From Alphaproteobacteria bacterium (lineage in GTDB: Bacteria > Pseudomonadota > Alphaproteobacteria > RF32 > CAG-239), in contig JAZKXV010000002.1 in NCBI GenBank assembly GCA_045611785.1, forward strand, positions 3,455 through 67,454: 64,000 nt of DNA, given 5' to 3'. The notes beneath the pieces are model-generated. The model saw only the letters and a list, made by a program, of their open reading frames with translations. It made no database searches and was not told where the DNA came from. Within the stretch, counting starts at the first letter, position 1, and every line of letters starts with the position of its first letter. A program made the position numbers and the translations under genes. This document shows positions 2 through 50,896 of this stretch, piece after piece.

Positions 2-409
2 GCTCTTAAATTTTTCGAGCCACAACACCAACAAGTCTCTAGAGTTGCGTCTAAGCATAAGTTCCTCTGCTTCATATCCTGGAGCGCTTTTCATGCAGGA
101 AAGAACTCTTTCACATACACTGTGCGTACCGGACGCAAAGACCCAATGAACATTTTCATCCCAAAAACCCCATAGGTCATGACTTTTCTGAAGAAGAGTA
201 TCCGATCCCACGACCATCAAGACTCTTTCAGAGGCTTTTTGCGGAAACGTAACATCTAAATAATCAGAAAGCCAATCTTGAGGAGCTTCCTTAAAAAAAT
301 CTGCCTCATCTTCTTCTGAAACTTGTCCATTTTCAAGACTTCTCAAAAACATCTCAAACTTTGCACGGTTCTTCTCCTGGAGAATCTCCATCAAATCAAT
401 CTGTACCAT
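2..409 (-). CDS. Hypothetical protein, partial (runs off window start)
   Basis: Hand translation from ATG at 409: MVQIDLMEILQEKNRAKFEMFLRSLENG..., open to the window edge; sigma70-like promoter upstream; not in the ORF track because it is truncated. Confidence 0.75.
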   Translation of the reverse strand, partial: MVQIDLMEILQEKNRAKFEMFLRSLENGQVSEEDEADFFKEAPQDWLSDYLDVTFPQKASERVLMVVGSDTLLQKSHDLWGFWDENVHWVFASGTHSVCERVLSCMKSAPGYEAEELMLRRNSRDLLVLWLEKFKS

Positions 410-448
410 AATTATAGTGTTTTTTAAAATAATTTAAATTTATGCTTT

Positions 449-477
449 TTTATACCAAATTTACAATTTCTTGTCAA
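449..477 (-). promoter_or_regulatory. sigma70-type promoter TTGACA-17-TATAAA
   Basis: Minus strand reads ttgaca agaaattgtaaatttgg tataaa, about 40 nt upstream of ATG 409. Confidence 0.65.
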
Positions 478-503
478 TAATTATTTGTCAAATTAGACTA
501 ATT

Positions 504-1988
504 TTAAATTTTAACAATTGATGTGCTCATTGCATAAACAGCAACTACAGAAACAGCAACCATTAATACAGCCATCGCAAATTCTTTTTTACTGAAAACA
601 TTTTCTTTCGGACTATTTTGTTTTCGTGCCCAAATATACACCGGAATACCGATTGCCATAAAAATAACTGCCATTAACAAATATTCTAAACCTGCAGCAT
701 AAATTAACCATATTGCATATATAGAGCCTATAACACCAGAAAATAAGGCAGCAGAACGCTTAATATACGTCTTATTAGGATATTCATGGTCCTCGCAAAT
801 TTTCCACAAGTATGCACAACTTGACAGATATGCCGGCAAGACCATAACTCCGGTTATACTTAACATTGTGTTCCAAGCATTATTAGAAAAATATACCAAC
901 ATCATAAAAATTTGCATCAAGGCACTTGTTACCCATAAAGAAACAGAAGGTGCTTGATTTTTATTTTCTGTAGCAAATTCTTTTGGGAAAGTTCCGTTTT
1001 TAGCAGCAGCCTGCGGGATTTGTGCCGTTACCATCGTCCATGCCAACCAACTGGATAACACGGAAATTAATAAACCGATATTCATTAACCATGATCCCCA
1101 TTTGCCTACAACTTTTTCTAAAATTCCCGCCGTAGAAGGATTCGCAATAGTAGCCAACTCTGCTTGGTTCATATAACCAAACGGCAACAAAGACAGTAAA
1201 ATATATATACATAAACAGCCCATAAAACCTATTAAAGTTGCCTTTCCTACCGATTGAACCGTTTTTGCATGCTGAGACATTACAACAGCCCCTTCAATAC
1301 CTATAAACGCCCACAAAGTGACTAACATTGTACTTTTAATCTGGGTAGATAAGCTTCCTAATTTGCCAATACTACTGATATTATCGCCCCAAAAATCAAA
1401 TGAAAAAGTAGCACTATTAAATACAAAAAGCATAATGATTATAAACAGTGCCAACGGAATTATTTTTCCTATTGTACCTATAAGATTTACAATTGTTGCT
1501 TGTTTAATTCCTCTTAAAACTAAATAGTTAAAGCACCATATTAAAATCGAACCGCCTATAATTGAATATATAGTATTTCCTCCGGCAAAATACGGCGGAA
1601 AAAAATAATTTAGAGCATCCATAGTTATAACTGCATAACCTACATTTCCGCATATTTGGCATAGCCAATATGACCATCCTATCGTAAAACCTACATATGG
1701 ACCAAAACCTTCACGACTATACATATATATACCGGCTGTTAAATCAGGTCTGACGTTTGATAAAATTCTAAAAGTATTAGCAATAAAGTAAACACCGAAA
1801 CCTGTGATTATCCATGCCAAAAACACAGCACCGGCAGATGCACCGCTTGCCATATTTTGCGGTAAAGAATATATTCCTCCACCTATCATTGAACTTACAA
1901 CTATAGCAGCCAATGCCATAACGCCTAAACCGGCGGAGTTTTTTCCCTCCGCCGTTTGTAAATTTTGAGTTGTTTCTTTTTTAAGCAT
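504..1988 (-). CDS. aaxC: Arginine/agmatine antiporter (APC family, AaxC/ArcD-like)
   Basis: SMIGGGIYSLP and WAFIGIEGAV motifs, many TM segments; follows arginine decarboxylase; ATG 1988 has AAGGA upstream (track start 2009). Confidence 0.85.
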   Translation of the reverse strand: MLKKETTQNLQTAEGKNSAGLGVMALAAIVVSSMIGGGIYSLPQNMASGASAGAVFLAWIITGFGVYFIANTFRILSNVRPDLTAGIYMYSREGFGPYVGFTIGWSYWLCQICGNVGYAVITMDALNYFFPPYFAGGNTIYSIIGGSILIWCFNYLVLRGIKQATIVNLIGTIGKIIPLALFIIIMLFVFNSATFSFDFWGDNISSIGKLGSLSTQIKSTMLVTLWAFIGIEGAVVMSQHAKTVQSVGKATLIGFMGCLCIYILLSLLPFGYMNQAELATIANPSTAGILEKVVGKWGSWLMNIGLLISVLSSWLAWTMVTAQIPQAAAKNGTFPKEFATENKNQAPSVSLWVTSALMQIFMMLVYFSNNAWNTMLSITGVMVLPAYLSSCAYLWKICEDHEYPNKTYIKRSAALFSGVIGSIYAIWLIYAAGLEYLLMAVIFMAIGIPVYIWARKQNSPKENVFSKKEFAMAVLMVAVSVVAVYAMSTSIVKI

Positions 1989-2002
1989 TCTTGTATCCTT
2001 TT

Positions 2003-2584
2003 CTAACAAACAACAGGATCTGCATATTCAAAATTCAAAAATCCTAAACATGTTAAGCAATATCCGAATTGTTCTGTAATATTCAAATAATTATGGAACA
2101 TTTCAAATTCGCTGTGTTTTTCAACTCCCCTAATATCAAGCTCATGTTGTAAAGATTTATTAAGCCACATTCTTGCGTGTCCTTGTGCAATTTCATCATC
2201 TATTTGCGTATCAAAAAACTCAACATATTCAGCTGCCCAACCACCAATAAGTTCACCATTTTTATCTTTACCCCAACAAATTCCGACGCCTGTTGCAATG
2301 GCTTTATGCTCATCTCTTGAAGCTCCGTGTCCTGCCATAATTACTTCTAACACAGCACCATGCTTAAACTGATTTACAACCTTATCAACACTTACAATGT
2401 TACCATATAACTCCTTAGGTAAAACTGATGTATATGGCACAACGTTAAAATTTTCGATTTTGGCTTGCATTAATGCTGAATCATAACAAAAAGTTTCAAA
2501 TGGTTGTGGCGGAATGCCATCATTTGCTTGACCGGCACCGCCTGTTTGAAACGCAAGTATAGGATAACGAACACCTTGTATCAT
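2003..2584 (-). CDS. aaxB: Pyruvoyl-dependent arginine decarboxylase (chlamydial AaxB type)
   Basis: [25 protein letters not shown] self-cleavage site, [19 protein letters not shown]. Confidence 0.9.
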
Positions 2585-2713
2585 AAATTTACTCCTTAAA
2601 ATTATGTTTTTTCAATACGCAAATTACTTAATTTTAATGAGCCTTTTTTCAATACACTTAGAACTAAATTTTATATGCAACCGTTCATATTTTCTTGATA
2701 TAAATTTTGCATC

Positions 2714-2741
2714 AAAAAAGTGCTGATAAATGTCAGCACTC
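2714..2741 (-). terminator. Intrinsic terminator after hflX
   Basis: Minus strand agtgctga-cattta-tcagcact followed by a T run. Confidence 0.6.
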
Positions 2742-2770
2742 ATAACACATCTTTTTATAACATTTTGAGC

Positions 2771-49653: not shown

Positions 49654-49654
49654 T

Positions 49655-49688
49655 TTCTAAAGCCACCAATCAGCAGGTGGTTTTAGAA
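49655..49688 (+). terminator. Hairpin after cca
   Basis: ttctaaagccacc-N8-ggtggttttagaa. Confidence 0.6.
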
Positions 49689-49894
49689 TAGAGCAAAATT
49701 TGTTCCAACGCCAGGCTCTGAAAAAGATGAGCAAATTCTGATTATGATGTACAACACCCAAATCGATTTACTTATTATGAGCACGATGATTATACAGTAA
49801 TCTTTGCAAAACCCTAAACCTAAAATGCTTCTTAAAAAATAAGAAGCATTTTTATTATAATAAAAAACCATCTTCTTATTGAGAAGATGGTGTA

Positions 49895-49971
49895 TGGCGT
49901 CAGCGGCGGGACTCGAACCCACTACCCACAGTTTAGGAAACTGTTGCTCTATCCTGATGAGCTACGCCGAC
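49895..49971 (-). tRNA. tRNA-Arg(CCT), CCA encoded
   Basis: GTCGGCG acceptor stem; ACAGT-TTCCTAA-ACTGT anticodon arm; GGTTCGAGTCC T-arm; ends GCCA; terminator hairpin at about 49862-49891. Confidence 0.96.
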
Positions 49972-50035
49972 AATCTAATTATTTTAGTATATTTAATTAA
50001 AACAAAAATCAAGATAAATTTGACTTATTAAACGA

Positions 50036-50063
50036 TAAAAGGAGCCTGTTACGGCTCCTTTTA
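50036..50063 (-). terminator. Intrinsic terminator
   Basis: taaaaggagcc-tgttac-ggctcctttta. Confidence 0.8.
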
Positions 50064-50075
50064 CTAATAGATTGC

Positions 50076-50804
50076 TTAACCCTCATAGACAAGAGTATCA
50101 CCTCTTACTGTGAAGATTGATACCTTCTCACCCTCTGCGAAGTTAAGTTCGTTGAACTCTTCTCTGCCAAGTGGTATAATTGCCGGCACACCACAGTGGA
50201 TATCGCAGAATAACCAACCCTTTGTTACCTCGCCAGACTGGGCATCAGAGATACCTATAGGCGTTGCAAACACCTGATAAGTTCTGTCCTTAAGAAAATA
50301 TCCGCACGATTTCTTCTTAAAGGTCACCTCGTACACTGCAGGGAGAGTGTTATCAGGAGCAAAATCCAACAGATTTTTCTCGGTCCTGATATACTCAAAC
50401 ATCTCTGCTACAGCTTTACGGTCTCTACATCCTCCGTCAGGAAGAACCAACGCAAATTTATCGCCTATACGGTGATAAACTGCAGACTCTGCAAGAACTA
50501 CATCGTCTTCAAGAATCTTTGCCGGCTCATACATAGAGAAAATCTGTCCATATCCTCTTGTGCTGAAGACCTTTTCCTGCTGATGGGGAAGAAAACTCTG
50601 CATAAAGAGCTTGTCTTTGCCGCATCTGAAAAAGAACTTACCGTGCTTGTATTTACTTACGCCAACTACAAACAAGAAGCCATCTGGCACTCTATGCTGA
50701 AGTGCAAACTCGTGGAACTTCTGAGGGGTAATAGCCTCAAAGTCTGACAATGATGAATGGAGAGGACTCTTTTTCTGTGTCTTGTTAAAAAGCAATGCAT
50801 CCAT
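50076..50804 (-). CDS. Hypothetical protein (higher GC than flanks)
   Basis: 242-aa ORF with own promoter and terminator; no SD. Confidence 0.8.
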   Translation of the reverse strand: MDALLFNKTQKKSPLHSSLSDFEAITPQKFHEFALQHRVPDGFLFVVGVSKYKHGKFFFRCGKDKLFMQSFLPHQQEKVFSTRGYGQIFSMYEPAKILEDDVVLAESAVYHRIGDKFALVLPDGGCRDRKAVAEMFEYIRTEKNLLDFAPDNTLPAVYEVTFKKKSCGYFLKDRTYQVFATPIGISDAQSGEVTKGWLFCDIHCGVPAIIPLGREEFNELNFAEGEKVSIFTVRGDTLVYEG

Positions 50805-50867
50805 AAGTGTTAATTTTAGATTTGTTATTATATAGATTAATTGTAAGAATAATTAAATAGTGAGTTT

Positions 50868-50896
50868 AATATATGACTAAAATTAAAATTTGTCAA
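50868..50896 (-). promoter_or_regulatory. sigma70-type promoter TTGACA-17-TATATT
   Basis: Direct match starting 10 nt past the ftsI stop. Confidence 0.62.

Follow-up and report, generated by a model that had tools for sequence, protein, structure and literature searches.

Why should six open reading frames (ORFs), each lying singly among typical genes, share one format of promoter, leader, start codon and terminator? The question is raised by a 64,000-nucleotide (nt) stretch of an Alphaproteobacteria bacterium (GenBank assembly GCA_045611785.1, contig JAZKXV010000002.1, positions 3,455 to 67,454), hereafter the window. A preliminary description had singled out six ORFs in it, starting at 409, 25240, 35756, 39865, 41299 and 50804, as lacking a Shine-Dalgarno (SD) sequence, and had proposed that they form a distinct gene pool. 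The host genome, numbered G000 (the window being G000:C2:3455-67454), amounts to 1.57 Mb in 39 contigs with ~33% GC. The Pfam matches of the window include GcrA, IalB, TolB and MraZ together with a ribosomal-protein operon, which points to an alphaproteobacterium, and the closest named relatives are records entitled "MAG: Alphaproteobacteria bacterium" (MAG, metagenome-assembled genome), one of which comes from roe-deer colon. The answer to which we incline, with a confidence only slightly above an even chance, is that the six ORFs are members of a native, lineage-conserved class of genes whose expression is independent of the SD sequence.

The six ORFs are numbered below in window order, the third being named pepF2 and the sixth orf242. 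GC3 designates the G+C content of third codon positions, given with its percentile in the genome, and dG the energy of pairing with the anti-SD sequence, obtained with the duplexfold function of ViennaRNA; aa stands for amino acids. The promoters are predicted ones.

2..409, minus strand: coding sequence (CDS) of gene 1, an orphan of 167 aa in the contig that runs off the window start; GC3 0.39 (99th percentile), dG 0.
410..477, minus strand: gene 1 promoter and leader; TTGACA at 477-472, 17-nt spacer, TATAAA at 454-449, 39-nt G-poor leader ending in aattATG.
434-428, minus strand: gene 1 downstream element, AATTATT, 14 nt behind the -10 box.
25167..25239, plus strand: gene 2 promoter and leader; TTTACT at 25167-25172, 17-nt spacer, TATAAA at 25190-25195, 44-nt leader ending in ctattATG.
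25240..25779, plus strand: CDS of gene 2, a 179-aa orphan; GC3 0.37 (98th percentile), dG 0.
25807..25840, plus strand: gene 2 intrinsic terminator, hairpin AAAGCCTGTT...AACAGGCTTT then a T run.
33909..33942, minus strand: pepF2 intrinsic terminator, 15-pair stem then a T run.
33942..35756, minus strand: CDS of gene 3 (pepF2), 604 aa, a second M3-family oligoendopeptidase F (Pfam Peptidase_M3, 6e-37); GC3 0.41 (99th percentile), dG 0.
35757..35831, minus strand: pepF2 promoter and leader; TTGACT at 35831-35826, 17-nt spacer, TACTTT at 35808-35803, 46-nt leader ending in ttcctattATG.
39504..39533, minus strand: gene 4 intrinsic terminator, hairpin and T run.
39542..39865, minus strand: CDS of gene 4, a 107-aa orphan and paralogue of gene 5; GC3 0.30 (90th percentile), dG 0.
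39866..39923, minus strand: gene 4 promoter and leader; TTGACT at 39923-39918, 16-nt spacer, TAATAT at 39901-39896, 30-nt leader ending in aaattATG.
40932..40957, minus strand: gene 5 intrinsic terminator, hairpin and T run.
40967..41299, minus strand: CDS of gene 5, a 110-aa orphan and, compositionally, the weakest member; GC3 0.28 (84th percentile), dG -0.9.
41300..41373, minus strand: gene 5 promoter and leader; TTGACA at 41373-41368, 17-nt spacer, TAGTTT at 41350-41345, 45-nt leader ending in tcattATG.
50035..50064, minus strand: orf242 intrinsic terminator, hairpin AAAAGGAGCC...GGCTCCTTTT.
50076..50804, minus strand: CDS of gene 6 (orf242), a 242-aa orphan; GC3 0.44 (100th percentile), dG 0.
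50805..50896, minus strand: orf242 promoter and leader; TTGACA at 50896-50891, 17-nt spacer, TATATT at 50873-50868, 63-nt leader.
50854-50848, minus strand: orf242 downstream element, AATTATT, 13 nt behind the -10 box, listed among the composite sites described below.

The layout that had been described was read again upstream of all six ORFs. The -35 and -10 hexamers are separated by 16-17 nt, the -10 boxes end 30-63 nt before the ATG, the last 20 nt of the leaders contain zero or one G, and the leaders end in attATG in five cases and in cttATG in the sixth. No G is present in the last 25 nt of the gene 2 leader or in the last 60 nt of that of orf242. A hairpin followed by a T run lies behind all six ORFs, one more than had been claimed; three of these terminators were also recovered by a terminator tool, and that of gene 1 is located in the contig beyond the window. 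The 13-mer TTCCTATTATGAG, reported to span two of the start codons, occurs exactly twice, at the starts of gene 2 and pepF2, against 0.13 in shuffles. Taken singly, promoter-like matches are not above chance in such AT-rich DNA (85 against 79.8 ± 9.5 in shuffles), so that only enrichment at the level of the class counts; the orf242 promoter is the joint best match (11/12) in a 19-kb scan.

The anti-SD pairing of the six ORFs is among the weakest 6-8% of the 1474 genes called in the whole genome. All six starts are backed by the N-termini of orthologues and are not of the ordinary SD-led kind; an alternative 629-aa frame of pepF2 would begin at a TTG that is the first base of its own -35 hexamer. 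The higher GC of these coding sequences was confirmed. Compared with a genome median GC3 of 0.23, they range from the 84th to the 100th percentile and four of them reach at least the 98th, while genes 4 and 5 (starting at 39865 and 41299) are only marginally raised. Their codon-model scores fall in percentiles 0-21. The most extreme is orf242, in which 76% of the Lys, Glu and Gln codons end in G.

As had been stated, five of the six proteins have no recognisable function. No Pfam family was found for these five, and the searches of the orphans against NCBIfam, PHROGs (0/5) and PDB sequences were all empty, including those of gene 1 (Pfam, NCBIfam, PHROGs) and gene 2 (PDB). The only likeness of gene 2 is a faint, sub-threshold one to the H-NS N-terminal domain (Pfam PF22470, E 0.006), and orf242 gave no usable feature match in the ESM Atlas, where the confidence of its model (predicted local distance difference test, pLDDT) is 0.36. 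A scan of the window with Rfam found only tRNA and no known leader RNA. The -35 box of gene 4 begins 1 nt past the stop codon of mdh, and the gene 5 leader contains an out-of-frame upstream ATG (41323-41325, minus strand) in the context aattATG typical of the class starts.

This format stands out in a genome that otherwise uses SD sequences, as the preliminary description had held for most other genes. Pairing at dG <=-5 is found for 54-66% of the genes of G000, depending on how the starts are picked, against 7% at internal ATGs. The 16S rRNA gene was not found in the G000 assembly; the canonical tail GGATCACCTCCTTTC is present in a genome of the same family, from which the anti-SD of G000 was assumed. 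G000 also encodes a six-domain S1 and bS21, the two proteins whose inspection had been suggested along with that of the 16S 3' end.

To what extent is the format found beyond the window? Genes and starts were called in the whole of G000 with our own simple codon-model caller. For the genome-wide tests the first in-frame ATG was taken, so that SD sequences played no part in the choice of start. Picking starts by any SD among all in-frame candidates proved noisy and was replaced by the first ATG and orthologue N-termini; under that earlier procedure, no SD was found anywhere in 20% of high-GC3 genes against 6-10% in the bins below 0.30 and 15% between 0.30 and 0.35. Two sets were used. The operational class combines GC3 >=0.30 with at most one G in the last 25 nt of the leader (50 genes). 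A second set of 43 genes was defined by GC3 >0.36 alone, which makes comparisons of leaders non-circular.

In this second set, 28/43 leaders have at most one G in their last 25 nt, against 84/1427 for the other genes (Fisher p=1e-22), and ATT precedes the ATG in 21/43 against 119/1427. In the same way, the SD at the first ATG is weak in 86% of the 49 genes with GC3 >=0.35 against 20-32% in the bins below 0.30. A two-component mixture is preferred over a single component (Bayesian information criterion 6153 against 8276, a difference partly driven by the point mass at dG 0), and its SD-less component gathers 160 of the 794 first-in-unit genes, with a mean GC3 of 0.29 against 0.23. The genome-wide scoring for bimodality that had been called for thus reveals a separate cluster in the plane of GC3 and leader G, not the tail of one continuous distribution. 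The genome holds ~50 clear members among 1470 genes, and up to ~160 when every first-in-unit gene with an SD-less, G-poor leader is included. What was confirmed of the distinct gene pool is therefore a separate class with its own initiation signals, for which help from S1 is plausible; its common donor or cassette-like origin, discussed below, is unsupported.

The class has mixed functions, including SPFH proteins, HAD, two acyl carrier proteins, M29 and M3 peptidases, a low-molecular-weight phosphatase, ANT and YhcH. A Pfam scan of 45 high-GC3 genes assigned domains to 16 of them and no family to the other 29. Signal-like N-termini occur in 17/50 class proteins against 21% elsewhere (p=0.05). 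A large-protein family has near-identical leaders beginning with gaaaagatttttcat, at G000:C4:77922-78521 and before a 989-aa gene on contig C12, the two copies being 91% identical over 199 aa; locus L082 of genome G013 has a similar leader start and is likely a relative, as judged from the leader only.

The leaders of the class have a characteristic logo. Among the 50 genes, A reaches 66% at -13, 76% at -12, 60% at -6 and 66% at -3, compared with 38-50% at neighbouring positions; T reaches 70% at -2 and 82% at -1, C is enriched, and G is limited to 0-2% from -22 to -9 and to 0-8% over -25 to -1. In the 43 genes chosen by GC3 only, G represents 3.7% over -20..-11 and 7% over -10..-1, compared with 9-15% in the sequence farther from the start and 16-21% in typical genes, while A is more frequent than in typical genes at -3 (0.67 against 0.56), -12 (0.65 against 0.49) and -13 (0.60 against 0.50). 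The same adenine positions (-3, -6, -12 and -13) were described as a "Kozak-like" feature of SD-independent initiation in Bacteroidia, with a stimulating effect on initiation reported for Flavobacterium and, in part, for E. coli (Baez et al. 2019, PMC6847099). The resemblance to the Bacteroidia type, as presented there and for group B of GeneMarkS-2 (PMC6028130), extends to leadered SD-less mRNAs and to an A/U-rich start region of low structure. Unlike the situation in Bacteroidia, the format concerns ~3-10% of the genes, the others using SD sequences, with a canonical anti-SD in relatives. Furthermore, the class has sigma70 promoters, TT at -2/-1 and a near-total absence of G, and two protein searches found no Bacteroidota ancestry.

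The position at which G disappears is informative. In 36 genes chosen by GC3 and promoter only, a G frequency of 11-19% gives way to one of 0-8% some 8 nt past the -10 box, a drop that is absent from promoter-bearing genes with low GC3. As the depletion begins at about the expected transcription start, it points to selection on the RNA. The mean unpaired probability over -20..+10 is 0.541 for the class against 0.496 for SD-led genes (p=0.009), a modest difference. Other AUGs near the start are under-represented in the Bacteroidia type; here the leaders contain 0.16 ATGs per 30 nt against 0.38, a contrast confounded by the depletion of G, and no deficit exists downstream (0.60 against 0.55). 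SD-less initiation through a local lack of secondary structure was proposed by Scharff et al. (2011, PMC3121790). Our class resembles the genes that they considered in that the start codon is unstructured and SD-less, G-free leaders being unable to form stable stems. It differs in that the phenomenon they present is a tendency across genomes, whereas here it concerns a discrete, conserved class tied to promoter, layout and codons.

Two other modes of initiation were considered and rejected. Leaderless mRNAs do not fit -10 boxes that end 17-86 nt before the ATG in the class. Coupling to an upstream ORF through ATGA overlaps was abandoned because the leaders of gene 2 and pepF2 have no consistent upstream frame ending at the start, ATGG being found in 2/6 cases.

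Class members are stand-alone units. A promoter score of at least 10 out of 12.5 is reached by 46% of the 50 class genes, against 12% of the 1420 others and 8.5% in shuffles, and the -10 box mostly ends 28-47 nt before the ATG. A terminator is present for 76% of the class against 34% of the other genes, and both flanks are intergenic for 66% against 29%. This layout recalls the phage "morons" (a concept of Juhala and Hendrix), which are said to be solitary genes, each equipped with a promoter and a terminator and differing in composition from the genes around it. The class genes share these three properties. Unlike morons, they lie outside prophages, next to ftsI, tRNA, mdh, tolB or rpsJ, have no match in PHROGs for the five orphans of the window, and are old and syntenic.

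Many leaders carry a further signal near their 5' end. AATTATT occurs in 18/50 class leaders, against 5.1 ± 2.1 in dinucleotide shuffles (maximum 12 in 300), and its position is fixed relative to the promoter and not to the ATG. Among 1819 promoter-like sites, ATTATT is found 13 times at 14 nt and 16 times at 15 nt behind the -10 box for a background of ~2.5. Composite sites number 29 in the genome; 20 of them have a called gene within 120 nt, and all 20 of these genes have dG >-4. More generally, among promoter-bearing genes, a -10-like hexamer starts 13 or 14 nt behind the -10 box in 23%+21% of the 96 that are SD-less and in 6%+8% of the 134 that are SD-led, and pooled partial data from three relatives gave 8/28 SD-less against 5/76 SD-led genes (p=0.005). 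Within the window, the element is at the expected place in three of the six genes, namely gene 1, orf242 and, loosely, gene 5.

Could this element be the primary feature? The class would then be a transcriptional regulon, in which one factor or a sigma-linked mechanism reads AATTAT(T), SD-lessness and composition being secondary. The sharp peak relative to the promoter, the weak pairing of all 20 genes next to composite sites, the excess of AATTATT over shuffles and a -35 box extended in the same way (TTGACAaa) all agree with it. However, the element is present in only ~36-44% of class or SD-less promoters and is missing at that position from gene 2, pepF2 and gene 4; with 7 bp and no symmetry it would be a short operator, and its replication in relatives depends on the small numbers given above. 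A regulon would also leave without explanation the depletion of G over the whole 5' untranslated region (5'UTR), the adenines near the ATG and the GC3. We regard it as an unlikely primary explanation that still keeps an appreciable chance of being right. Under the preferred reading of a native SD-independent class, the element may instead be a sigma-dependent pause site. In E. coli, a distance of ~11 bp separates the -10 box from the -10-like region associated with a sigma70-dependent promoter-proximal pause (Sun et al. 2021, PMC7876045), and our sites resemble such pause sites, including that of lambda PR', by a second -10-like hexamer at a fixed distance from a near-consensus promoter. They differ from these by their longer spacing and, where a composite site has a called gene nearby, by occurring only at SD-less genes. 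This is a lead only, the alternatives being an operator and an element of the RNA close to its 5' end.

Codon usage is the other feature that sets the class apart. The frequencies of CAG (0.49 against 0.14), AAG (0.42 against 0.15) and GAG (0.42 against 0.15) are increased and that of TTA is reduced (0.19 against 0.51), while the amino-acid composition is much as in other genes. A bias of highly expressed genes was rejected as its cause, 21 ribosomal-protein genes having a GC3 of 0.27 and a G-ending fraction of 0.23 for Lys, Glu and Gln, far from the class. The opposite possibility is relaxed selection: weakly expressed, dispensable genes would have failed to acquire or to keep an SD and their codons would drift to mutational equilibrium, expressed genes being held AT-rich. 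Fast protein evolution (median identity to relatives 46-48% for the class against 67-74% for other genes), low codon-model scores and the many orphans agree with this scenario. The class GC3, however, which ranges from 0.30 to 0.51, exceeds the G+C of the upstream DNA (~0.25-0.30) and is thus not a product of neutral drift; some force holds it. Furthermore, G is rarer in the leaders than in the DNA upstream of them, the adenines are position-specific, class promoters are nearer to consensus than those of other genes, the format is retained in orthologues, and the GC3 of ribosomal-protein genes is slightly higher than the median, not lower. Relaxed selection is consequently a very unlikely explanation.

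The conservation of orf242 gives the clearest view of the age of the format. Relatives are numbered G001-G013 and so on; 31 genomes were searched for orf242, and comparisons of gene content relied on relatives sampled at 15-27% of their genomes. The gene was found in 7/31 genomes belonging to three genera, beside ftsI in all seven. Its identity and that of ftsI fall in step (68/80, 62/69, 47/67 and 43/63%), which fits vertical descent. The order ftsI, orf242, tRNA-Arg(CCT) is found in G000, G004 and G006. In G001 and G005, the site between ftsI and the tRNA gene is cleanly empty, the tRNA following ftsI by 75 nt; the variable junction corresponds to window positions 49898-49971 (minus strand) and 50805-50905. 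The comparison with empty sites that had been suggested therefore does reveal a presence/absence polymorphism, for which loss is more parsimonious than insertion since orf242 exists in two other genera. Other genes follow ftsI in G008, G010 and G011, and the dcw cluster of this lineage is interrupted behind ftsI.

The leader format follows the genes. All seven pepF2-type copies, including that of G000, and all seven orf242 copies have SD-free leaders (dG 0). Orthologues of pepF2 are present in five congeners and in G010 (53-82% identity), with raised GC3 and in different neighbourhoods; TTGACT and the 17-nt spacer are kept in all copies except that of G010, and G003, G004 and G006 also share the TAnnnT box and a leader ending in tttctattATG. 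By comparison, the vertical copy pepF1 (G000:C28), common to the whole family and 40% identical to pepF2, has a GC3 of 0.20. Its start is ambiguous, an SD-like AAGGAAG preceding its third ATG, and five pepF1-type orthologues from other genera have dG values from -1.5 to -6.4, four of them between -5.3 and -6.4. Orthologues of gene 1 in G004, G001 and G013 (39-55% identity) have G-poor leaders, and a double TTGACA upstream of gene 1 is conserved in G004. For gene 2, the leaders of the relatives in G013 (45%) and of the two copies in G001 (33%) contain a single G in their last 25 nt. Genes 4 and 5, paralogues that flank mdh, both match one 106-aa ORF of G004 (48% and 33%). Orthologues and paralogues of three other window members have 1-3 G in the last 25 nt. 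Overall, class orthologues keep the leader format at 43-82% identity.

The contrast in GC3 has a narrower distribution. In five congeners, the GC3 of orf242 is 0.43-0.49 against 0.20-0.29 for the adjacent ftsI, whereas in the GC-richer sister genus represented by G013 both have similar values (0.52 and 0.54). In the same way, G-free leaders are again associated with high GC3 in the congeners G001 (6/13 against 12/234) and G004 (5/10 against 5/178), and not in G013 (1/18 against 9/329), which still has G-free leaders of the same style (10/347). The contrast is thus limited to the AT-rich genus, in which the bulk GC3 fell to ~0.23 and that of the class stays at 0.3-0.5. A lag after recent import does not account for the raised GC3, which is unchanged in five congeners with proteins only 59-68% identical.

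These data bear on the proposal that the class is a foreign gene pool, acquired from a common donor or by a cassette-like route and carrying its codons and SD-less leaders from that donor, for example a gut Bacteroidota. Several features could be expected from it: the atypical codon usage, the Bacteroidia-like logo, the extra copy pepF2 in varying contexts, a class gene with a phage ANT domain, the presence or absence of orf242 as a discrete module between ftsI and tRNA-Arg, and the high-GC3 genes without a Pfam family. The class peptidase PepS, which is 76-88% identical within the lineage, is moreover nearest to Bacillota outside it (best named matches, 50-58%). Yet orf242 is syntenic in three genera with an identity in step with that of ftsI, its GC3 stays high in congeners although synonymous sites should be saturated, and no contrast exists in G013. 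Named pepF2 homologues are all alphaproteobacterial MAGs, and class promoters follow the proteobacterial sigma70 pattern. A match in the sampled parts of relatives exists for 10-14% of class proteins and for 12.5-22.6% of the others, a difference that is not significant, and no shared flanking repeats were seen by eye. Bacillota use strong SD sites, so that the one clear outside affinity suggests that the leader format was acquired in the recipient lineage. A Bacteroidota donor, suspected from the logo and the gut habitat, was rejected on the affinities of pepF2 and PepS; this test is indirect, outside-phylum donors being judged only from names in these two protein searches. As for integron-type cassettes, comparison of the boundaries of the orf242 module with the empty site of G001 and G005 revealed no obvious repeats, by eye only and with no formal search. 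The common donor or cassette route put forward in the preliminary description is therefore unlikely.

Genes with an atypical codon usage, putatively transferred, are reportedly what Medigue's class III comprises. The genes described here resemble these, and the atypical genes of GeneMarkS-2 (PMC6028130), as a minority with deviant codons, many orphans and some foreign ancestry. They differ by a composition that is kept over deep divergence, goes together with the leader and promoter format, and departs from that of the host towards GC and not towards AT. Class members are stand-alone, fast-evolving and mostly lineage-specific genes. Comparison of their sequences indicates that the format is old, kept under divergence and applied to genes of different ancestry, PepS appearing to be an old import with Bacillota-like ancestry.

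An artefact, such as mis-called ORFs or starts or a chimeric MAG, could be suspected from a 39-contig assembly without 16S and from our own gene calls. This is largely refuted: class genes sit singly on long contigs with typical genes on either side, lengths of 107-604 codons at 34-44% GC greatly exceed those of chance ORFs, Pfam domains are found in part of the class, and independently assembled genomes contain orthologues with matching N-termini and format. An artefactual origin is extremely improbable.

By sequence statistics, each unit consists of a sigma70-type promoter (TTGACAaa, 17 nt, TAnnnT), a 5'UTR of ~20-55 nt without SD, the CDS and an intrinsic terminator. The 5'UTR is depleted of G from about the expected transcription start, is enriched in A at -13, -12, -6 and -3, and has TT at -2 and -1. 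If the class is native, as we favour, the 30S subunit would be recruited without anti-SD pairing, through an unstructured A/U/C leader kept free of G by selection on the RNA, full-length S1 and the "Kozak-like" adenines probably helping initiation. SD-independent initiation aided by S1 is plausible. In ~44% of promoter-bearing SD-less genes, AATTAT, expected at about +7 to +12 of the transcript, may act as a sigma-dependent pause site or as an operator, and this element may couple or regulate slowly initiating mRNAs. Candidate forces for the high GC3 include selection for a more structured or stable CDS behind an open leader and biased gene conversion in genes that are often exchanged.

A bolder version can be imagined, in which two initiation grammars coexist, SD pairing for most genes and, for the conserved stand-alone set, a Bacteroidia-like mode dependent on accessibility and adenines. 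During transcription, a pause of RNA polymerase at the -10-like element would allow the G-free leader to be loaded, and the initiation mode would force a GC-richer CDS, the leader alone being open. If true, the initiation mode would constrain synonymous composition, which would explain why the class is visible only after AT drift. We consider this version speculative and rather doubtful.

Several observations weigh against the native class as we interpret it. Among the 112 G-poor leaders, 62 belong to genes with GC3 <0.30, and several paralogues of class genes pair G-poor leaders with a GC3 of 0.21-0.29; as SD-less genes without high GC3 exist, the link between GC3 and leader is statistical, not absolute. 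In the set chosen by GC3 only, A is barely enriched at -6 (0.49 against 0.45). The contrast in structure is modest (unpaired probability 0.54 against 0.50 in the translation initiation region and 0.435 against 0.472 in the CDS). The hexamer lies ~19-20 bp from the -10 box, start to start, against ~11 bp in the E. coli study (PMC7876045). Some members have a foreign ancestry (PepS, the ANT-domain gene) and the contexts of pepF2 differ in congeners. Gene and start calls depend on our own simple caller, and transcription starts, translation and any pausing are deduced from the DNA. As regards RNA, one metatranscriptome run shares 5% of sampled words with the DNA and yielded, inside pepF2, two mismatch-free contigs of 278 and 213 nt, the four matches outside it being partial and poor; the two contigs may be DNA, and transcription is not demonstrated by them.

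The coexistence of SD-led and SD-less genes in one genome is a familiar situation, in which the SD-less ones are usually regarded as a scattered residue. In the present case they make up a discrete, conserved class in which promoter, leader chemistry, monocistronic layout and synonymous composition covary. If these links are causal, the "Kozak-like" S1 route of Bacteroidia would exist as a dedicated channel inside an SD-using proteobacterium, and the initiation mode could hold GC3 against AT drift, which bears on what is called foreign in scans for horizontal transfer. A positioned -10-like element may, in the same hypothesis, tie transcription start to SD-less initiation. From a practical point of view, gene finders trained on SD sequences will mis-start or miss class genes in many MAGs of this gut lineage. 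Our literature search found no description of such a class, of a link between SD-lessness and raised GC3, or of gene expression in this gut lineage. GeneMarkS-2 is described as not modelling the initiation types that are rare in a genome (PMC6028130), and this may be the reason why the class went unremarked.

Some other features of the window are worth mentioning. The genes for an alpha/beta hydrolase and dxs (5102-7796, plus strand) have SD scores of -1.5 and -0.9, two G in the last 25 nt and an ordinary GC3 of 0.21, so that SD-poor genes of typical composition also exist. The ribosomal-protein operon ends at rplO and is followed by a 572-nt gap (14790-15361) with neither secY nor adk after it; an adenylate-kinase gene with a raised GC3 (0.42) is located elsewhere, at G000:C12:144683-145399. 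Four large ORFs of 1135, 777, 411 and 380 aa (11382-14789, plus; 54714-57047, minus; 29689-30924, minus; 43511-44653, plus) match no Pfam family at 1e-5 and have typical composition and SD sites. Lastly, a pyruvoyl-dependent arginine decarboxylase gene adjoins that of an amino-acid permease (504-2584, minus strand).

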